Source: Candidatus Woesearchaeota archaeon
GTDB taxonomy: Archaea > Nanobdellota > Nanobdellia > Woesearchaeales > DSVV01
Direction: 5' to 3'
Length of the DNA stretch: 64,000 nucleotides
NCBI GenBank assembly: GCA_016214075.1
Contig: JACRPI010000005.1
Coordinates: 2,662 to 66,661, forward strand
Under the pieces are notes generated by a model that worked only from the letters and a program-made list of their open reading frames with translations, had not been told where the DNA came from and did no database searches. Both the position numbers and the translations under genes were made by a program. This document shows, piece after piece, positions 7,744-59,003 of the stretch; position 1 is the stretch's first letter, and each line of letters opens with the position of its first letter.

Positions 7744-7791
7744 TATTCTTTGAAGAATTATAGCTCATTTATATAGATGACTTTGAATATA

Positions 7792-7880
7792 GTAAATATC
7801 CTTAGATTTCGAACCGGCTATAGGATATTTACTATTCAGCAGAAATCCACCAATGTTCGAATCTCATGGATTTCTGCTAT
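7792..7880. promoter_or_regulatory. Two tandem perfect 12-bp-stem hairpins with loops each containing TTCGAA
   Basis: tagtaaatatcc-[ttagatttcgaaccggctata]-ggatatttacta, then agcagaaatcca-[ccaatgttcgaatctca]-tggatttctgct. Confidence 0.45.
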
Positions 7881-7914
7881 AACACGATTTTTGAGCATTT
7901 ATGCAAATGCATCT

Positions 7915-8112
7915 GTCAAGAACCACCAATCATCGCTCACTTCGTTCGCTATAGATTGGTGGCATGATCGAGGTGGTTCTTGAGCATGTTACGAATATAG
8001 CACCTTCAAAAAAACGAAGGTGGACTGATTGAACTATGTTCAATTCATTACGAATCGCAATTCGAAATGTTGTCCACTGGTTACTAAACCAGTGGTATAT
8101 TCGAAACATATT
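7915..8112 (+). repeat. Family-A structured repeat, copy A1 (with an internal ~47-bp insertion relative to A2)
   Basis: aagaaccacc...ggtggttctt outer stem, caccttc...gaaggtg and ccactggtt...aaccagtgg hairpins, ends ggtatattcgaaacatatt. About 90% identical to 13915-14072. Confidence 0.6.
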
Positions 8113-8211
8113 GAGAATTTTGGCAACTTGAAAGATCCTCAACATTATCAATAACTTCACTCCGAAAGTTTTATATGCATGAAGTAGTAAAAACAGGCAT
8201 AAGGGGCGATC

Positions 8212-9966
8212 ATGGCGGAAAATGTATTCATTGAGCTCAGTATAATCATTTTGATAGCAATAGGATTCGCAGCATTAATGCGACTCCTCCGTCAGCCATT
8301 GATTATTGGCTATATTCTGACTGGTATTGTCGTCAGTCCATATTTCTTGGGTTTATTTAGGAGTTCAGAAGATATTACCACATTTGGGCAAGTAGGCGTT
8401 GCGCTTCTTTTGTTTATGGTGGGTTTGAGTCTAAATCCACAAGTCATACGAGAGGTAGGGAAAGTTTCTATTATTACTGGGGTCGGTCAGTTGTTATTTA
8501 CCGCGATTGCGGGGTTTTTTATCGCAAAATTGTTAGGATTTTCCGTCATTACGGCAGTATACATTGCGGTTGCGTTAACTAATTGCAGCACGATTATTAT
8601 TCTCAAATTAATCTCAGATAAAGGAGAGTTAGATAGATTATACGCGAGGATTACTATTGGCTTTCTGCTTGTTCAGGATTTGATCGCGATTCTGATTCTC
8701 ATGTTTATTTCTTCGTCAGCAGGTGGAGGAACATTTGCGCATATTCTCACAGAAACAGTGGTGAAAGGAGTAGGCGTACTTGCGCTATTATTTGTCGTTG
8801 GCATGTATGTGTTGCCTGCGTTAATAGACCGTGTTGCGAAATCGCAGGAGTTCTTGTTATTGTTTTCCATAGGGTGGTGTCTGCTTCTTGCGGCGTTTTT
8901 GTGGTACCTTAATTTTTCACTTGAAATTGGCGCTTTGCTTGCGGGAGTGACACTTTCGCTTTCTCCATATCGTCATGAAATTAGCGCGAGAATGAAACCC
9001 CTCCGAGATTTTTTTATCATCTTATTTTTCATAATCATTGGGTCACAGATGAATTTTCAGAATGTAACGTACTCATTCTGGAGCATTATTCTTTTCTCTT
9101 TGTTTATCTTGATAGGAAATCCATTGATTCTGATGATAATTATGGGCGCGCTTGGCTACACAAAAAAGACAAGTTTCCTCGTTGGGCTTTCTGTTGCGCA
9201 GGTAAGCGAGTTTACATTTATCATGATTGCGCTTGGTATTAAAGTGGGTCACGTCCCGCAGGAAATAATGTCTCTGGTGACAGTGGTGGGTATGATTACC
9301 ATTGCAGGTTCCACATACATGATCATGTACGCAGATAGATGGTATTGCATCTTCGAGCCATATTTGGGAATATTTGAGAGAAAGGGAAAGAAAATAGATG
9401 GCATAAAAAAGCAAAAGACAAAAGCGTACGATATTATTCTTTTTGGGTACAACAAAATGGGATACGACCTTCTGGATTCATTTAAGAAACTCCGCAAAAA
9501 GTTTTTGATCGTTGACTACGATCCTGATATCGTTCGGCGCTTGACGAATGAAGGATACGATTGTCAGTATGGCGACGCAGAGGATATTGAATTATTAGAA
9601 GATCTTAATGTGGGAAAAACAAAAATGTTAGTTTCAACTATACCAGATCTCCGTGTGAATGAGATTATTATTGCAAAAGCGCGAGAGCAGAATAAAAGTG
9701 CAGTGGTGATTGTTCTTTCTAATCATATTGAAGACGCAATCAGTCTCTATAAATCAGGCGCGACATATGTCGTGATGCCGCACATGGTAAGTGGCGGGCA
9801 TGCCTCTTCGCTTATCAAAAAACATGGAATTGATGTAAAGAAATTTTTCAAAGAGCGTGGAGAGCATCTTAAAGTGCTTCGCGAGCGGCAAAAGAGACAT
9901 AATGTGAGGAAAATTAGCGAGTTATACCATAAATATTTCAAAGGAAAGTTTGGAAAGAAAAAATAA
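8212..9966 (+). CDS. Kef-type K+(cation)/H+ antiporter (CPA2) with C-terminal TrkA-N/RCK domain
   Basis: Polytopic N-terminus typical of the Na+/H+ exchanger family. C-terminal Rossmann segment YDIILFGYNKMGYDLLDSF...VDYDPD. Confidence 0.85.
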   Translation: MAENVFIELSIIILIAIGFAALMRLLRQPLIIGYILTGIVVSPYFLGLFRSSEDITTFGQVGVALLLFMVGLSLNPQVIREVGKVSIITGVGQLLFTAIAGFFIAKLLGFSVITAVYIAVALTNCSTIIILKLISDKGELDRLYARITIGFLLVQDLIAILILMFISSSAGGGTFAHILTETVVKGVGVLALLFVVGMYVLPALIDRVAKSQEFLLLFSIGWCLLLAAFLWYLNFSLEIGALLAGVTLSLSPYRHEISARMKPLRDFFIILFFIIIGSQMNFQNVTYSFWSIILFSLFILIGNPLILMIIMGALGYTKKTSFLVGLSVAQVSEFTFIMIALGIKVGHVPQEIMSLVTVVGMITIAGSTYMIMYADRWYCIFEPYLGIFERKGKKIDGIKKQKTKAYDIILFGYNKMGYDLLDSFKKLRKKFLIVDYDPDIVRRLTNEGYDCQYGDAEDIELLEDLNVGKTKMLVSTIPDLRVNEIIIAKAREQNKSAVVIVLSNHIEDAISLYKSGATYVVMPHMVSGGHASSLIKKHGIDVKKFFKERGEHLKVLRERQKRHNVRKISELYHKYFKGKFGKKK

Positions 9967-9995
9967 TGAGATGCAATTTTTATTGACCAGAGGCA

Positions 9996-10865
9996 TTATT
10001 TGTGTAAGCCTTCTTTGCTTTTCACTTCTTTTCCAGTACCATAAAAAGTGTCTTCAACAACAAGACCAATTTTCTTGAGCATATCGCTTGCGACAAGTCC
10101 AGCATGACCTATTTCCCCTTTGACTACGTCACCGCAAAGACCGTTAATGTATGCGGCGGCGATTGCGCTGTGGAATGGATCTTTTGTTTGTGCGTAAAAG
10201 CCAACAGCTAATCCCGCGAGAATATCACCGGTGCCGCCAACAGTCATTGCAGGGTTGCCTGTTTTGTTGTACGCGACTTTGCCATGGCCGTAAATCATAT
10301 CTACATTCCCTTTGAGAATAATGATGTTGGATCCAATATATTTATTCAACTGAAGTTTTCGAATATGCGTATTCTCAAGAAGCATTTGAAATTCGCGTTT
10401 ATGAGGCGTTAAGATGGAGTTTTTTGTCTCTTTCAAACTGATTGCTTTGATAGCGTCAGCGTCAATAACAAGGGGTTTATTTTTCTTGCTGAGTTCTTTG
10501 ATGACATCAATGCAGAATTGGTGTGATTTTCGTCCAATACCATTGCCAATAAGAACTGCGTCAAAATCTTTTGCGAATTTCACGACAGCGTTGACGTGTT
10601 TTTTGTCAAAATACAAGCAATCAAACTTTTTGGTGATGAGATCAGGCGCAAGTGCGTTTAGCGCCCATGCGACTTTTGTCGGAGCTGCGACAGTGACAAT
10701 ATCAACCCCGCTGCGCAGTGCGGCGATACCTGCGAACGCGACAGCGCCAACGTAATCCTGGCTTCCGCCAATGAGAAGAACTTTGCCAAAATCTCCTTTT
10801 TTTGACGTGGGAAGTCGTTGAGGAAGTTTCAATTTTCGAACATCTTGTCGTGTAATATATTTCAT
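9996..10865 (-). CDS. nnrD: ADP-dependent NAD(P)H-hydrate dehydratase (YjeF C-terminal / carbohydrate-kinase domain)
   Basis: GGTGDILAG motif, VLLIGGSQDYVGA, about 289 aa stand-alone NnrD domain. Confidence 0.85.
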   Translation of the reverse strand: MKYITRQDVRKLKLPQRLPTSKKGDFGKVLLIGGSQDYVGAVAFAGIAALRSGVDIVTVAAPTKVAWALNALAPDLITKKFDCLYFDKKHVNAVVKFAKDFDAVLIGNGIGRKSHQFCIDVIKELSKKNKPLVIDADAIKAISLKETKNSILTPHKREFQMLLENTHIRKLQLNKYIGSNIIILKGNVDMIYGHGKVAYNKTGNPAMTVGGTGDILAGLAVGFYAQTKDPFHSAIAAAYINGLCGDVVKGEIGHAGLVASDMLKKIGLVVEDTFYGTGKEVKSKEGLHK

Positions 10866-10928
10866 ATAAGTCTATTTTGGAATATTGAAATATTTAAGCT
10901 TTTGGATTTGTTCAACTTATTAGAAAAT

Positions 10929-11717
10929 CTACTTCTTGATCTTAACATTCCCTGCAGGCAGCATCCGTATAATTTCATCAATCGTTCCTACTTTAAACTG
11001 CGAACGAAGCGTTTTTGCGAGATCGCTTGGTTTTTGTTCTCCTTGTACAATTTCGACAAAATGTTCTGCGTGCGCTTTGATCGCGGCGTAAGGTCCTGCG
11101 ATAATCCTTCCTTGTTGAACACCAAACGCAAATCGCATGTCATGATCAATATAATGCATTTTTCCTGTGATGACAAACGCGCCGCGTTCAACATATTCTC
11201 CTGCTTTTGCGGTTTTGGTGACTTGTTCTGGAGTGACCCAGCCAACTTTGACGTTGACAAAGCCAAGTTTCCATGCCCTGCTGTATAGCGCAGTCGCAGT
11301 CGCGGTTTCGTTTATCGTGCGTTCAGAAGGTTCTTTTCCTTCAGATTTAATGACAAAGAAGGGGCTTCCTTGTAAATCCGTGTGAAATATGAGATCTTTT
11401 GGAGCAGTGTGTTTCTTGATAACAAGTTCGTTGGTGATTGCGTCTCTGCCGCCGATCACTAGAAAACCATCAGAAGAGTAAAACCAGTGAAATTTTTCAT
11501 ACCATTCTTTTTTTGGGACGTTTTGGACAGCTGTTTTGTGCGCTTCTACTTTTTGTTCTACTTTATGTTGTTCGTGGAGCGCTGTTTGGAGTTTTTGTTT
11601 GCTGATCTCGAGTGCTTTTTTTGCGCCTTCGAGTTTTTTCTTTGCTTTTTTCGCTTTGTCAAAGTAGATGCCAGCGTTTTCGTGAATAGTTTTCGTGAAG
11701 TTGAGGGAAATTTGCAT
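10929..11717 (-). CDS. NFACT-R (DUF814) RNA-binding protein with N-terminal coiled coil (short Rqc2/NEMF/FbpA-family homolog)
   Basis: DLIFHTDLQGSPFFVIK matches the DUF814 core (lwfHa.d.pGShvvl). Lys/Glu-rich coiled-coil N-terminus. Confidence 0.65.
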   Translation of the reverse strand: MQISLNFTKTIHENAGIYFDKAKKAKKKLEGAKKALEISKQKLQTALHEQHKVEQKVEAHKTAVQNVPKKEWYEKFHWFYSSDGFLVIGGRDAITNELVIKKHTAPKDLIFHTDLQGSPFFVIKSEGKEPSERTINETATATALYSRAWKLGFVNVKVGWVTPEQVTKTAKAGEYVERGAFVITGKMHYIDHDMRFAFGVQQGRIIAGPYAAIKAHAEHFVEIVQGEQKPSDLAKTLRSQFKVGTIDEIIRMLPAGNVKIKK

Positions 11718-11737
11718 GAGTAATTTCCATCTTCTTT

Positions 11738-11747
11738 CCTTTATATA
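11738..11747 (+). promoter_or_regulatory. TATA-box-like element (ctttatataatt) about 25 nt upstream of the GC-rich structured island
   Basis: Archaeal TATA consensus-like tttatata; spacing predicts a transcription start near 11768. Confidence 0.4.
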
Positions 11748-11764
11748 ATTAGTGAAAAAGTCTC

Positions 11765-11874
11765 ATCCCGCCGTAGGCGCCGACGCGACGGGGGAAGGCC
11801 CCTCGGGGTGTCGCGTAGGACAAAATTCGAAGAATTTTGTCCGTAGGCCGCCTGCTGCGGCGGGATGGCAAAGT
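11765..11874 (+). ncRNA. Candidate structured ncRNA (~110 nt, GC-rich island) with a 10-bp closing stem and at least two internal hairpins
   Basis: catcccgccg...cggcgggatg perfect terminal pairing. Internal gcgac-[gggg aagg cccc tc gggg]-gtcgc and a perfect ggacaaaattc-gaa-gaattttgtcc hairpin. Local GC far above the ~38% background, followed by a T-rich tract. Confidence 0.4.
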
Positions 11875-11905
11875 ATTAATAACTAAAAGAATTATTTTAT
11901 CCAAC

Positions 11906-12211
11906 ATGGCCAAAGATTACAAAAAAAAACATCAATCGCAAATCGAATCGCGAATTCGTCATCTCTTTAACGAAGCGCATGAAGTGCGAATTTCAGATAC
12001 ATCTTCCGCGTCGAGATATGTTTTTCTCGCGAGAAAGCTTGCGGCAAAGGCAAAAGTTCGAATTCCAAGAGAACTTAAAAGACAGTTCTGCAAAGAGTGT
12101 AATACATTCTTCATCCCAGGAAAGAATTACACAGTGAGAACAACAGGGAAAACAATCAGCTATACTTGTAAAGTTTGCAAGAAAATCACGAGAATAGGAT
12201 ATAAAAAATAA
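11906..12211 (+). CDS. rnp4: RNase P protein component 4 (Rpp21/Rpr2 family)
   Basis: Start taken at MAKDYKKK. ASRYVFLARKLAAKAKVRIPRELKRQFCKECNTFFIPGKNYTVRTT...CKVCKKITR is the Rpp21 signature with a CxxC...CxxC zinc ribbon. Confidence 0.8.
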   Translation: MAKDYKKKHQSQIESRIRHLFNEAHEVRISDTSSASRYVFLARKLAAKAKVRIPRELKRQFCKECNTFFIPGKNYTVRTTGKTISYTCKVCKKITRIGYKK

Positions 12212-12418
12212 ATATCATCTTTCTCAAGCCTTCAGCCCCCTGGCAGCCCGTATCTTAAACATTTCGAAATTCTATCTTTAACTTATTTATGCATATTATA
12301 AACACAAACAGAATTTCGTAATGTGTTAAGAACCACCGCATAAGATTTTGAAAGGTGGTTCTAAACAAAATCGAGAATTGGTATACTCACATTCAATAAG
12401 AGTTCAAGAAAAAAGAAT

Positions 12419-12613
12419 CTATGGTTTGAACATATATTTGAACTCGTTTCGTTTGCCTGTATTTTTGTATTTTACTAATTGACTTTTTCTGAGTTTTTTC
12501 AAACTCATCGTGACTGAGCCAATAGAAACATCAATGCTTTCGCTGATCTGTTTAGAGGTGAACCATTTGTTCTTATTCTCCTTCAAAAAGTTGTAAACTT
12601 CCTGTTGTCCCAT
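12419..12613 (-). CDS. Small winged-helix DNA-binding protein (putative transcriptional regulator)
   Basis: 64 aa; WFTSKQISESIDVSIGSVTMSLKKLRKSQLV is HTH-like. Confidence 0.4.
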   Translation of the reverse strand: MGQQEVYNFLKENKNKWFTSKQISESIDVSIGSVTMSLKKLRKSQLVKYKNTGKRNEFKYMFKP

Positions 12614-12690
12614 ACAGGTACTAGTAATCCAAAGTACTATATAAGTCTTTGGGTAGTTTATTTATAAATGACCCCTCCTTATAAACGCGG

Positions 12691-13341
12691 CTAACCACTG
12701 CCAAAAAGCACAATTTTGAGCACAAGAAGTCCTATCCCAAGGCAAACCATGCCGCCCCAGACAAAGTAATTCCATTTGAAGATTTTCGCGCCATCAAAGT
12801 TCATGAAAGGAATCATATTGAAGATTCCAAGCCAGCTGTTAATCAAAAAACCATATTTTGCGGTTGCGAGCACAAAAGGATGAAGAAATAATGCAGAAAT
12901 CAAAAGAAAAAATAATGCGAAAATATAATTTGTAAGTGGACCGACAGCAGAGATAATTCCATTCTGTCGCGGCGTAATGTGCGGCCCATAAATCATGACA
13001 GCGCCGGGCGCGGCGAATAAGAAGCCCATAAACGAAGAAAACACTGCAAACAATAACATCATATTATCCGCGCGAAATTCTGCCCAGCAATGATAATACT
13101 GCGCGACAAGTTTGTGCATGAGTTCATGCAAAAGAAAGCCAGTTCCAACAGTTGTTGCGGCAATAATAAAAATCAATCCCGTTCCGAGACCGAAAGAAAA
13201 GCCATTCAATAAAATAGTAAACGCAAGACTCACGAAGAACCATGCTTTCAAGAGTTCATGGATTTCAACATCAGAAGTCCTAATTCCCCATATTTTCTTT
13301 TGATGCGGCGCTTGTGCGAAGTACATTGTTCTCTTTCTCAT
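12691..13341 (-). CDS. Site-2-protease-like membrane zinc metalloprotease (M50 family)
   Basis: HELMHK (HExxH) in a TM helix plus downstream NMIPFMNFDG (NxxPxxxxDG), both S2P hallmarks. Multiple TM segments. Confidence 0.65.
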   Translation of the reverse strand: MRKRTMYFAQAPHQKKIWGIRTSDVEIHELLKAWFFVSLAFTILLNGFSFGLGTGLIFIIAATTVGTGFLLHELMHKLVAQYYHCWAEFRADNMMLLFAVFSSFMGFLFAAPGAVMIYGPHITPRQNGIISAVGPLTNYIFALFFLLISALFLHPFVLATAKYGFLINSWLGIFNMIPFMNFDGAKIFKWNYFVWGGMVCLGIGLLVLKIVLFGSG

Positions 13342-13358
13342 GTCAGTCTATTTAAAAG

Positions 13359-13781
13359 TTACTCAAACACAAGAGAATCTCCAATAGCAATCTCCTTTTT
13401 CGCAACAAAGCCCGCGTTCACTTCCAACGCATAGAGTGCAGGTTTTGAGTAATATTTCTCACAATCAGCAACAACACACGGTTCAAAATTCTCCTTAATA
13501 TCAACAATAGTACCAGTACTCTCAACAAAAATAATATCAAGTGGAATCTTTGTATTTTTCATCCAAAACACGCGCTGCTTTTCTTCAGAAAAAACAAACA
13601 ACATGCCAGAATCAGCGGCAAGTTCTGTTCGATACATCAAGCCGATTGCTTGCTCATCAATCGAATCAGCAATCTCAATAATAATAGGAATTTCACTTGT
13701 TACTGTTTTAATGATAACAACATCTTGTGAAGCACAGCTAAGTAAGAAAAAGAAGCAAATGAAGACAAATATTTTTTTCAT
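13359..13781 (-). CDS. DUF192-domain lipoprotein
   Basis: Signal/lipobox FFFLLSCAS; GLMYRTELAADSGMLFVF matches the DUF192 core. Confidence 0.65.
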   Translation of the reverse strand: MKKIFVFICFFFLLSCASQDVVIIKTVTSEIPIIIEIADSIDEQAIGLMYRTELAADSGMLFVFSEEKQRVFWMKNTKIPLDIIFVESTGTIVDIKENFEPCVVADCEKYYSKPALYALEVNAGFVAKKEIAIGDSLVFE

Positions 13782-13914
13782 TACACAACTTGAGGGGTTG
13801 CAGTTCTTATGCTTTACGTTTTCATTCTGTAAACACGCATCATCTTAACATAAACAATCGCTCCACAAAGTCCACATGCACAATTCATCTCTTTTTTATT
13901 AACTTATTTTTGTC

Positions 13915-14072
13915 AAGAACCACCGATCACCGCTCCCTTCGGTCGCTATAGATAGGTGGCATGATCTCGGTGGTTCTTGAGCATGTTACGAATATAGCAC
14001 CTTCAAAAAAACGAAGGTGGACTTGTCCACTGGTTACTAAACCAGTGGTATATTCGAAACATATTAAAATAT
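13915..14072 (+). repeat. Family-A structured repeat, copy A2
   Basis: Near-identical to 7915-8112 apart from the insertion. A third, partial copy of the aagaaccacc...ggtggttct hairpin lies at about 12338-12378. Confidence 0.6.
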
Positions 14073-14197
14073 ATAAAAAAGCATAGGGATTCAGAAGCGA
14101 TAGGGCAAACCAAAAATGATAAGGCGAATCTAAAAGTAATAAAGCGAATAAAGAAGTGAGACAACAACTTTATATATCTCTGCAGCAAAATAACTGT

Positions 14198-20221: not shown

Positions 20222-20286
20222 GTAATAGTCTGATTTTCTTATTCTCTTTCATTTCATTCTCATTATTTAAGTATGTTTTCTCTCTA

Positions 20287-20440
20287 AAATTAAATAATAA
20301 AAGAATGGAGATTCAAAAGGACTGTAAGGCGAATAAAATGCAGAGGCAGCTATTTATTTCAGCCTACAAGAAAAAACACGCACAAGCAAAGCAAAATGTC
20401 AGGGGGACCCAATGCTCCTTAAGGAGCATTGGGGTATTAT
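20287..20440 (+). repeat. Family-B repeat, full copy B1
   Basis: aaattaaataataaaagaatggagattcaaaaggactgtaaggcgaat...acacgcacaagcaaagcaaaaTGTCAGGGGGACCC-AATGCTCCttaaGGAGCATT-GGGGTATTAT. Confidence 0.6.
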
Positions 20441-42267: not shown

Positions 42268-42315
42268 AATTATTCATGTTGTGTCATATTCTTCATCTCT
42301 TAATACGTTTTGAAA

Positions 42316-42467
42316 AATAAATAATAAAAGAATAGGGATTCTCAAGGACTGTCAGGCGATTCACACAGCAACAAGGCGATTGTTTGCCTAGCAACAGAGC
42401 AAATACACGCACCAGTAAAAGCTAAATTGTCAGGGGGACCCATCACGTAGTGATGGGATTATTATGA
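42316..42467 (+). repeat. Family-B repeat, full copy B2
   Basis: gaaaaataaataataaaagaatagggattctcaaggactgtcaggcgatt...aaggcgatt...acacgcaccagtaaaagctaaatTGTCAGGGGGACCC-ATCACgtagTGAT-GGGATTATTAT. Confidence 0.6.
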
Positions 42468-49783: not shown

Positions 49784-51382
49784 GTGGTAATGCATTTTTC
49801 GTTGAACAAAAAAATACTCAACAGTATTATTTCTTTTTTGATTTTTATTTCAATTCTTACAGCAGTTTCCGCGCAGGATTATCTTGCGTTGCAGGGAAGC
49901 GCGGCAGGTTCTGGTAGAGGAATAGGAAGTGGGACTGGGCAAGGAAATATTACTATTGAGATTTGGGGTGCAGCAACAGGAGGTTCTTTGCTTTATAACT
50001 CTACATCAGATTTTTGGGGTGCGTTAAATAATAGTAGATATGATATTTTACTTGGAAATGGGTCGCAGCCATTAAATCTCAATTTTTCAAATACATATTT
50101 CATGGAAATCTACATTAATGAGAGAGAATTGGATTTTAATGGAACTGAACGACAGGTTTTTCAGAGTCCAGTAGGAAATATTACAGTGACGACGCCGATT
50201 AAAACAACAAATAGTTTGAACGTGAATGATTTCTTTAATGTAACTGGGTCAACGAGTGTAGTTAGAACAAATGGGACAGTGATGATTTTGAATGCTGATG
50301 TTGATGATGCGTTGAACGTCTCTGGTGCAGTTTTCTCAGACACTCAATTTAAAACAGATGGACCAATTATTAGTATAGCGGCAGCAACAGCATTAGGTTT
50401 GGATGTCAGCGGCTTTGCGACCGTTGCCAATTTCTTCAACGTGACTCCAGCAACAAGCGCAGTACGAACAAATGGGACAGTAACTATAATTAATGCAGAC
50501 GTAGATGACGCGTTGAACGTGACAGGAGCTACATTTTCAACATTGCAAGTTAAGACAGATGGTGGATTCATTAGCCGTGCGGCAGCAACAGCGCTAGGTT
50601 TGGATGTCAGCGGCTTTGCGACCGTTGCCAATTTCTTTAACGTGACTCCAGCAACAAGCGCAGTACGAACAAATGGGACAGTAACTATAATTAATGCAGA
50701 CGTAGATGACGCGTTGAACGTTTCAGGTGGGTTAAAGATGGGTTCAGAACCAGGGTCAGCATTCACCTTTGCAAGTTTTACTATCAGCGACCAAGGTGTC
50801 GTCACAACTGATGCAAACATTGGACCAGTTGCAGGAAGAGGGAATGTGATCATCAATAGTCTCACAGAGCCAGCGTTGAGAATTAACTCAGGATTCAACG
50901 TGAGTGGGACAACAGGAAATCTCAAAACAAATGGGACAATTACCATTACAAATCTTGATTCAGACGATGCGTTCAACGTTAGCGGTGCCTCTATCTTTAA
51001 AGATAAGGTCTTTATCTCGGGTCCTGCTCCAGATCCTATATTTACAGTGAACAATGGGTTTAATATCAGCGCAAGTAATGGTGCAGTTAGAACAAATGGA
51101 ACAATTACCATTACAAACCCTGATACAGACGATGCGTTGAATGTCACAGGAAGCATTGCGCAGCAAGGACCTGCGTTCACTATTGGCAATGCAGATTCAA
51201 CGACACAAAATCATGTTGATATTTATGATGGGGGATCAAACAAATGTGCGTATCTTACATTATACGATGAGAATGGTGGTCCACATTATTTCTGGACGAA
51301 TACGACTGGTGGTCTTCTCACTGCGTCTCTTCCACCAATTAATTGTGATGGAGAAGGAACAACTGTAGGTTCACAAGCATAG
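49784..51382 (+). CDS. Secreted tandem-repeat surface protein rich in N-glycosylation sequons
   Basis: Signal peptide, then about six ~56-aa repeats (NVTxxTSxVRTNGTVxIxNADVDDALNVSG). Near-identical 168-bp DNA repeats at about 50393-50560 and 50561-50730. Confidence 0.75.
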   Translation: MVMHFSLNKKILNSIISFLIFISILTAVSAQDYLALQGSAAGSGRGIGSGTGQGNITIEIWGAATGGSLLYNSTSDFWGALNNSRYDILLGNGSQPLNLNFSNTYFMEIYINERELDFNGTERQVFQSPVGNITVTTPIKTTNSLNVNDFFNVTGSTSVVRTNGTVMILNADVDDALNVSGAVFSDTQFKTDGPIISIAAATALGLDVSGFATVANFFNVTPATSAVRTNGTVTIINADVDDALNVTGATFSTLQVKTDGGFISRAAATALGLDVSGFATVANFFNVTPATSAVRTNGTVTIINADVDDALNVSGGLKMGSEPGSAFTFASFTISDQGVVTTDANIGPVAGRGNVIINSLTEPALRINSGFNVSGTTGNLKTNGTITITNLDSDDAFNVSGASIFKDKVFISGPAPDPIFTVNNGFNISASNGAVRTNGTITITNPDTDDALNVTGSIAQQGPAFTIGNADSTTQNHVDIYDGGSNKCAYLTLYDENGGPHYFWTNTTGGLLTASLPPINCDGEGTTVGSQA

Positions 51383-53747: not shown

Positions 53748-53912
53748 CATCATAAATACCCCATTACACTTTAGTGTAATGGGTCCCCCTGACATTTTTG
53801 CTTTACTGGTGCGTGTATTCTTCTTTACTATTAAACAATAATTCGCCTTACTACTACATGAATCGCCTTATTGTCCTTTTGAATCCCCATGTCTTTATTA
53901 TTTATTTTTTAA
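53748..53912 (-). repeat. Family-B repeat, full copy B3 (reverse orientation)
   Basis: Reverse complement reads aaataaataataaagacatggggattcaaaaggacaataaggcgattc...aaggcgaatt...acacgcaccagtaaagcaaaaaTGTCAGGGGGACCC-ATTACACtaaaGTGTAAT-GGGGTATTTAT. Confidence 0.6.
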
Positions 53913-58720: not shown

Positions 58721-58835
58721 AAGGTATTTTTTGCGCAGTTCTTGTTTATATGTTTTGTTGAAGGAAGGATATCATTTATCTTTTCCGTTGTTTTGTGGGG
58801 ATTTTGTGTATTCATCTATTTTTACAAACTCCATA

Positions 58836-58946
58836 AAACCCCATTGCACTCAAGTGCAATGGGTCCCCCGGGCATTTTGCTTTTGCTGGTGCGTGTTTTG
58901 AAGCTTGTCGTAGCCCAGTGTAGCTTTGAATCGCCATACTCCTTTA
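58836..58946 (-). repeat. Family-B repeat, truncated copy B4 (reverse orientation; CCCGGG variant of the TGTCAGGGGG box)
   Basis: ccCCATTGCACtcaaGTGCAATGGgtcccccgggcattttgcttttgctggtgcgtgt...ggcgattcaaag. Confidence 0.55.
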
Positions 58947-59003
58947 CTGTCAGGGGGACCCATTCCAACGCGCTTTTGCGTTGGAATGGGGTATTATTAA
59001 GGT
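58947..59003 (+). repeat. Family-B 3' module copy B5, head-to-head with B4
   Basis: cTGTCAGGGGGACCC-ATTCCAACGCgcttttGCGTTGGAAT-GGGGTATTATTAAGG. Confidence 0.55.

Follow-up and report, generated by a model that had tools for sequence, protein, structure and literature searches.

Three copies of a short hairpin-rich repeat lie in intergenic DNA of the window (here the whole stretch of 64,000 nt that was analysed), and they belong to a family of small, hairpin-built mobile elements that is widespread in Woesearchaeota and that we refer to as family A. The copies share a single anatomy with conserved pairing, differ in presence and absence between orthologous sites, insert without duplicating their target next to a one-sided motif that covaries with an internal spacer, and include nested mini-copies. 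Broadly speaking, this makes family A probably a mobile DNA element of the PATE or IS200/IS605 type, non-coding and non-autonomous, as same-polarity palindromes and duplication-free insertion beside the motif T-W-T-n-A-A are hallmarks of both. A limited literature search found no earlier description of the motif or of the family, which as far as that search goes is undescribed.

The DNA of the window is archaeal (GC ~39%, encoding the RNase P subunit Rpp21 as well as an NFACT protein), and its promoters take the BRE/TATA form AAAGnTTTATATA. As the preliminary description had proposed, it holds two long and near-identical copies (A1 and A2, Table 1), which are 94% identical over their first 113 nt and 100% identical over their last 43 nt. 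Their substitutions were rightly said to cluster in the inner stem, since all of them are confined to the inner part of hairpin 1, and the nested stems listed there (aagaaccacc/ggtggttctt, caccttc/gaaggtg and ccactggtt/aaccagtgg) are all present. Other points needed correction: the insertion in the first copy, given as 47 bp, is a block of 44 bp and itself a two-hairpin mini-element, and the third, partial copy (A3), placed at 12338-12378, shares the outer stem (and only that) with the others and sits slightly to the left of that position. The “tggtatactc” following A3 is ordinary flank, kept in a relative that lacks this hairpin, and the quoted 3′ motif ran past the end of the element, its final bases (..aca|tatt) belonging to the target flank. 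Finally, all three copies had been placed just upstream of gene starts, which holds for A1 and A2 (both in divergent intergenic regions) but not for A3, whose neighbours, the Rpp21 gene (11837-12211, +) and a wHTH gene (12419-12613, -), converge on it with their 3′ ends.

Table 1. Coordinates of family-A copies and of other features in the window and in comparison contigs.
Feature	Sequence	Position	Strand	Description
A1	window	7914-8108	+	full element, two modules
A1 module 1	window	7914-7986	+	TGTCAAGAACCACC...GGTGGTTCTTGAGCA
A1 module 2	window	7987-8108	+	TGTTACGAATATAGC...GGTATATTCGAAACA
Nested mini-element in A1	window	8026-8069	+	44 bp; two short hairpins, TGATTGAAC-TATG-TTCAATTCA and TTACGAAT-CGCA-ATTCGAAATG
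A2	window	13911-14061	+	full element, two modules
A2 module 1	window	13911-13983	+	
A2 module 2	window	13984-14061	+	
A3	window	12324-12367	+	one-hairpin module TGTTAAGAACCACC-16 nt-GGTGGTTCTAAACA; ends TG...CA
Right target flank of A1	window	8109-8115	+	TATTGAG; fits family flank consensus T-W-T-n-A-A
Right target flank of A2	window	14062-14068	+	TATTAAA
Possible solo degenerate module-2-like hairpin	window	7839-7877	+	GCAGAAATCCA...TGGATTTCTGC; weak nhmmer match; within the 386-nt block missing in L128; assignment uncertain
Region holding A1	window	7775-8161		L128 equivalent 18 nt
Region holding A3	window	12259-12374		L128 equivalent 7 nt
Region holding A2	window	13853-14112		L128 equivalent 80 nt, with family-B hairpin
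Family B copy	window	20286-20440	+	
Family B copy	window	42313-42465	+	
Family B copy	window	53755-53890	-	
Family B copy	window	58835-58990	-	
Family B, partial	window	14085-14150		
Family B in L128	L128	16693-16784		hairpin at the psd upstream site where the window has A2
Logan contig L001	window	8083-13938		
Logan contig L132	window	up to ~8001		
3′ end GGAAAAT..ACA				flank TTTT
3′ end GGTATAT..ACA				flank TAT
3′ end GGCAT..ACA				flank TGC or TGT
Y1 gene and leader	L110	4341-5070	-	
Y1 gene and leader	L134	2330-3058		
Y1 gene and leader	L140	2330-3112		
Y1 gene and leader	L144	377-1094		
Phycisphaerales repeat copy	L052	3422-3479		
Phycisphaerales repeat copy	L059	2894-2951		
Phycisphaerales repeat copy	L063	91-148		
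Phycisphaerales repeat copy	L081	617-674		

Within the window, AAGAACCACC was matched 14 times at up to one mismatch (2.9 expected) and the 3′ 19-mer twice (0.03 expected). A further copy, ~90% identical to A2, was found on contig L107; the flanks of this copy are absent from the window, so that it offers no comparison with an empty site. Look-ups of exact proteins for strain variants of the window locus returned the same sample only. In the Logan assembly of that source sample (SRR12113407), contigs start or stop inside both A1 and A2, from which it follows that these repeats break assemblies and that family A also accounts for assembly breaks.

Several other repeats were observed in the window. 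To the left of A1, a hairpin AGTAAATATCCT..AGGATATTTACT occupies positions 7790-7833, inside a 386-nt block missing in the related contig L128. A second repeat family, family B, combines a 5′ module (..AAAAGAATGGAGATTCAAAAGGACTGTAAGGCGA..) with a 3′ module (..ACACGCAC..AAATGTCAGGGGGACCC-hairpin-GGGGTATTATGG). Two regions carry in-frame repeats, namely 1907-2137 (six overlapping 66-nt tandem copies with 33-nt spacing) and 50229-51152 (several 201-nt units, 63-77% identical), and both look like repeat-containing protein genes.

The distribution of family A was evaluated with the pattern CAAGAACCACC-N25-55-GGTGGTTCTTG (exact outer stem), searched in 185,579 species-representative genomes. This strict pattern recovered 93 loci, against ~1 expected by our own estimate, and 82 of these 93 came from 44 Woesearchaeota/Nanoarchaeota assemblies (some of them mislabelled “Methanosarcinales”), with up to 8 loci per assembly, to which the window adds three. 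Genome GC of the element-bearing assemblies, as read from isolate names, spans 33-52%. No match to the strict pattern was found in 2.9 million viral contigs, and the 33 viral-contig matches to a looser one (AAGAACCACC-N16-46-GGTGGTTCT) were taken as chance without inspection. Retrieved loci were further searched for the family with nhmmer and the family alignment. Subfamilies are common to several genomes, best identity being 0.80 within an assembly and 0.78 between assemblies. In a Phycisphaerales MAG (DAOVLE01, GC ~0.59), a palindromic repeat that has the identical 13-nt stem (GTCAAGAACCACC..GGTGGTTCTTGAC) and adjoins GGTGGCATG is present in four copies or more; it is either a chance match multiplied by a local repeat family or a remote relative.

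Once oriented and aligned, the copies follow one common asymmetric architecture of two head-to-tail hairpin modules. The consensus reads T|GTCAAGAACCACC - nGTCAnAGACnGGTGG(C/A)ATG - variable hairpin - GGTGGTTCTTGAGCA for module 1, and TGCTCAGAAAT(spacer)CC - variable hairpin - CCACCAGTCAnAGACTGGTGG - (spacer)TTTCTGACA for module 2. Each module starts with TG(T/C)..CA(A)GAA, ends with TTC(T)TGA..CA, and includes a near-terminal palindrome (CCACCnGTC-loop-GACnGGTGG); on the left, 9 nt separate the palindrome from the end of the element, and on the right ~13-16 nt. The termini themselves are short and imperfectly inverted (TGTCAAGAA / TTCTGACA), while the palindromes adjacent to them are direct and not mirrored. 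Elements measure 44-230 nt, too short for a transposase. Additional mini-hairpins of the same type occur between or inside modules in L041, L056, L061, L067 and L113, the first three of which hold nested mini-elements like that of A1, and mini-copies of 44-54 nt are found without the conserved palindromes.

Comparison with relatives revealed orthologous sites with and without the element. The metagenome contig L128, which encodes a kef protein 92% identical to that of the window, is collinear with window positions 1-17.7 kb at ~83% DNA identity, and A1, A2 and A3 are all missing from it (Table 1); no family-A sequence was found anywhere in L128-L131 (65 kb total). The same contig (15167-16252) has ~1.1 kb extra between the M50 peptidase and DUF192 genes relative to the window (13326-13386). 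Two clean filled/empty pairs were found, and only two. The first comes from syntenic MAG loci with 86-89% nucleotide identity, where the empty site of L067 reads ...caggc|tttaaatactttttt (tttaaatac) and the filled site of L106 reads ...gtagc|TGTCAAGAACC...GGAATTCCGATG|tttaaatactttttt (TGTCAAG..CCGATG). The second lies within the window, A2 being the empty version (GGTGGAC|TTGTCCAC) and A1 the filled one, with its 44-bp block between GGTGGAC and TTGTCCAC. Neither pair includes a target duplication, and in both the boundary is ambiguous by one T. Likewise, a search for target-site duplications (TSD, k = 2-5, every offset) detected no flank repeat above shuffles. Next to a tRNA gene, L106 (2236-2441) contains a full family-A copy that includes nested modules, and the orthologous site in L067 (4863-5092) contains a different set of mini-hairpins (..ACTCAGAAATCAAGATTTCTGAGTGATGT..), so that elements turn over frequently at this tRNA-adjacent hot spot.

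The two sides of the insertion are not equally informative. On the left, a sharp 5′ boundary is preceded by T (position -1) in 96% of copies and the flank is otherwise essentially uninformative; the right flank displays T-W-T-n-A-A at up to 1.6 bits per position. As it is already present in the empty L067 site, this motif corresponds to the target flank and not to the element. Of 58 independent copies, 36 had complementary bases at element position -11 and flank position +2, where 18.5 are expected (the observed number was reached by none of 500 shuffles, mutual information z = 11.3): +2 was T in 18 of the 22 copies with A at -11, and A in 17 of the 18 copies with T at -11. This spacer-flank rule also separates subfamilies inside one assembly (examples of 3′ ends and flanks are listed in Table 1), and no one pairing register fits all copies, the AAAG and AATT subfamilies being off an antiparallel reading. 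A flank that pre-exists in empty sites and covaries with the spacer points to element-directed target selection, a view that these data support without proving. The element end plus flank, CCGACA|TATAAA, resembles a BRE followed by a TATA box.

A1 and A2 are predicted to fold as two domains (z ~ -8.5 versus shuffles), and their reverse strands fold equally well. The preliminary description had let its structured repeats stand or fall with conservation of the structure in additional copies, and this conservation is strong: in a 40-sequence alignment, 92.5% of cells were paired (33-46% with slid partners), the covariation score was 0.265 (vs. ~0.05), and both-sided changes occurred in 141 cells, a number reached by 0 of 500 shuffles. 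In the closing helix of module 2, double changes affect 8 of 11 pairs and one-sided (wobble) changes none. In a set of 65 copies, neither strand folds better than the other (MFE, Wilcoxon p = 0.86) and G-U pairs are rare to the same degree (175/3397 vs. 191/3405), such that neither G-U counts nor MFE allow a putative RNA strand to be assigned. Conserved pairing with no strand or G-U bias suggests selection as DNA complementarity rather than as a one-strand RNA, and fits a pairing constraint acting at the DNA level. In both palindromes it is the same strand that carries the A-rich loop (A83/T30 and A95/T42), which indicates that the palindromes are direct and not inverted; this shared polarity implies that the structure is not a mirrored TIR and that one strand is special.

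These results bear directly on the RNA and regulatory readings, two of which (sRNA genes and cis-regulatory RNA leaders) had been offered in the preliminary description. Trans-acting structured small RNAs (guide or scaffold, omega-RNA-like), their genes multi-copy by chance, would account for strong conserved pairing with compensatory changes, for a strand-asymmetric sequence with A-rich loops on one strand, and for its preservation across genomes of 33-52% GC. We nonetheless consider this improbable, since positions are not conserved (copies are missing in the close relative L128), mini-copies of 44-54 nt exist without the conserved palindromes, and neither G-U enrichment nor strand energy asymmetry is seen. 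In addition, no upstream TATA peak or fixed-distance promoter was found, composition upstream of the 5′ boundary being flat, and a search against Rfam returned no match at gathering score in the 64-kb window and nothing meaningful at E ≤ 10 (best psRNA14, 25.2 bits vs. 60). No recurrent linked protein gene was found among 535 neighbouring ORFs either, these forming 474 singleton clusters and representing unrelated housekeeping genes. On sequence grounds, family A is thus unlikely to be an independent sRNA gene. Control of kef, psd and the wHTH gene in cis, by an RNA leader or a DNA operator, appears very improbable: A1 and A2 do precede the kef and psd start codons by ~100-140 nt and on the same strand, but the BRE/TATA boxes of kef (~8165-8179) and psd (~14166-14178), ~25-35 nt before the ATGs, are downstream of the elements, and both promoters are conserved in the element-free L128. 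With transcription starts inferred from the promoter consensus, elements upstream of these boxes are outside the kef and psd mRNAs, which excludes a cis-regulatory RNA leader. Moreover, A3 is downstream of both its neighbours, and elsewhere neighbours are unrelated and all orientations are seen (23 divergent, 31 tandem of which 18 antisense and 13 sense, and 5 convergent).

The remaining alternatives accept a DNA-level repeat. In a classical DDE-transposase MITE or an “SMR-A-like” repeat, the inverted termini TGTCA(A)GAA...TTC(T)GACA would be bound by a cut-and-paste or other enzyme acting on double-stranded DNA, and such an origin could explain why TG opens and CA closes each module and the whole element, the inverted termini being imperfect, and why stems change by strictly Watson-Crick double changes with no strand bias. 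The Haloquadratum SMR-A (~110 bp) likewise has ITRs and no target duplication, its route being unknown (PMC3119063). We still find this reading doubtful given the absence of target-site duplication, the same polarity of palindromes that are not mirrored, and a one-sided target motif covarying with an internal spacer; no DDE transposase was noticed in ~1 Mb of loci, in which the explicit search was for Y1 proteins. A second MITE family, the third option of the preliminary description, was its nearest one as far as a mobile element is concerned, although a classical TIR-MITE was rejected because family A shows neither a TSD nor mirrored subterminal palindromes. A domesticated repeat with a structural role (protein-binding site, insulator/terminator or promoter donor) would be compatible with a mobile origin, and could be reflected in termini conserved across 44 species-level assemblies, in subfamilies common to several genomes, and in the promoter-like end and flank, followed by an ATG 28-39 nt past the element end in a few copies (L043, L068, L066, L117). 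It would seem an improbable main explanation, as a gene begins at promoter distance from only ~4-6 of 59 copies and orthologous sites differ in presence and absence. Separately, H/ACA, C/D-box, ribozyme, retron, integron attC and ORB candidates were dropped, their defining motifs being absent or paired in covarying stems, as was a DGR, the differences not being adenine-specific. No tRNA or tmRNA was found.

For the preferred reading, a PATE or IS200/IS605-type element, an enzyme was sought by a phmmer screen of the retrieved loci, which identified one IS200-type Y1 ORF (L110 4341-4901), 3.3 kb from an element. This protein scores 126.9 bits against NCBIfam transpos_IS200 (cutoff 55), falls below threshold for RAYT, and is related to the solved ISHp608 and ISDra2 TnpA structures; the Y1 proteins tested score 121-127 bits against transpos_IS200 and 20-26 bits against REP_Tyr_transpos (RAYT, cutoff 80). 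At E ≤ 1e-10, 619 homologues were counted, of which the best 120 are 62-85% identical, and several named Woesearchaeota/Nanoarchaeia transposases are among the homologues listed, the protein being widespread in the clade. The gene is solo (no tnpB) and keeps the same context in 24 contigs, with neighbours abutting its 3′ end, hence no right end is visible. Short Y1-bearing contigs were rejected as stand-alone IS copies because they hold neighbouring host genes. The Y1 gene and family A were found together in one assembly, that of L110; no family-A motif was found beside the Y1 gene in L134, L140 and L141, nor any HMM match in L134-L142, and when ORFs lying between distant half-sites were sought as autonomous elements, only a few solo half-sites and no IS with the same ends turned up. 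The Y1 gene is preceded by a conserved and structured leader of ~170 nt, which begins with AAAA|TGAC and includes a compensatory hairpin (CCAGC-TAAA-GCTGG or CACCC-TAAA-GGGTG) and an ACCACC..GGTGGT stem spanning the start codon. It resembles family A weakly, through its TGAC start after an A-run and its TAAA-loop hairpin. In L140, four tandem ~54-nt units (tcgagcgctagtgagaaaactaaaactatgaatgtaatgaatttgtttttgtttt) lie directly upstream of this leader (~2150-2340). Across 256 Nanobdellota proteomes, K07491 (annotated as REP-associated tyrosine transposase) is the sole transposase KO with strict hits (bioRxiv 10.64898/2026.05.13.725050). The Woesearchaeal solo Y1 TnpA may thus be regarded as a candidate enzyme for family A.

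The following mechanism can be proposed, in which we infer the single-strand intermediate, the identity of the enzyme and the active strand. The element would move as single-stranded DNA, its hairpins being recognised by a Y1 (HUH) tyrosine transposase supplied in trans. This transposase would cut at the ...GACA|T end and paste the element, with no target duplication, beside a short A/T-rich sequence (T-W-T-n-A-A on the strand shown), and the 4-5 nt spacer by the foot of the module-2 hairpin would partly set the target choice. Because this target resembles an archaeal TATA box, copies would pile up in promoter-containing intergenic regions, which may explain their promoter-proximal location, and could alter expression there.

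DPANN archaea are usually portrayed as streamlined, with few mobile elements. A family present in at least 44 species-level Woesearchaeota/Nanoarchaeota assemblies suggests an overlooked layer of intergenic turnover in these genomes. The spacer-flank covariation, if confirmed, would represent a natural case of transposon-directed and reprogrammable target choice. For annotation, family-A repeats should be masked as mobile elements, and not reported as sRNA genes or riboswitch-like leaders.

Several known systems share part of this anatomy. Correia elements of Neisseria have TIRs and a TA duplication, and pneumococcal BOX repeats have no defined insertion signature. Family A is similar to both in its modular hairpin units of variable number near promoters, with possible incidental effects on transcription, but differs by a duplication-free and sequence-directed insertion. 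REP/REPIN sequences are thought to be moved in trans by a single-copy, vertically inherited Y1 transposase (RAYT), and like them family A consists of dispersed intergenic hairpin repeats, often in doublets. However, the Woesearchaeal Y1 scores as an IS200 TnpA (RAYT 22 bits vs. 80), its gene is not flanked by family-A repeats, no GTAG head is present and the host is archaeal; membership in REP/REPIN-RAYT was rejected on the below-cutoff RAYT score and the lack of repeats flanking the Y1 gene. It is tempting to speculate, as a possibility we would hold only tentatively, that family A and the solo, fixed-context IS200-type TnpA form an archaeal counterpart of bacterial REPIN-RAYT, in which a vertically inherited Y1 would maintain tiny hairpin elements, with spacer-programmed insertion by TATA-like sequences and promoter remodelling in streamlined DPANN genomes.

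The Y1 TnpA proteins of IS200/IS605 elements (ISHp608, ISDra2) operate by “peel and paste” with transposon-directed target-site selection, a mode of transposition reportedly described by Barabas and colleagues in 2008. Family A likewise combines strand-specific subterminal hairpins, a one-sided oligonucleotide flank, no duplication, and a flank correlated with the spacer by the hairpin foot. In contrast to these elements, its target is longer (6-7 nt) and more degenerate (TWTnAA), the spacer-flank register is not uniform, and the candidate tnpA is solo in a fixed context rather than within a complete IS; the short imperfect inverted termini also depart from textbook IS200/IS605 ends. In haloarchaea, PATEs are non-autonomous relatives of IS200/IS605 (IS605-type) transposons, with no ITRs, near-terminal palindromes that are sometimes identical, no target duplication, and 52-bp terminal-only versions still moving (Dyall-Smith et al. 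2011, PMC3119063). Family A, found in DPANN Woesearchaeota and likened to PATEs by described features and not by sequence, adds long stems that close each palindrome as well as short TG...CA termini in inverted orientation, and differs in that no IS605-type transposon sharing its ends was found as a parent, nor was a TnpB noticed in the loci examined. Both are of non-coding size, carry near-terminal palindromes in the same orientation, and are dispersed through duplication-free and strain-specific insertions. In both, one element can be nested within another, and very short versions (52 bp and terminal-only for PATEs, 44-54 bp for family A) are apparently mobile.
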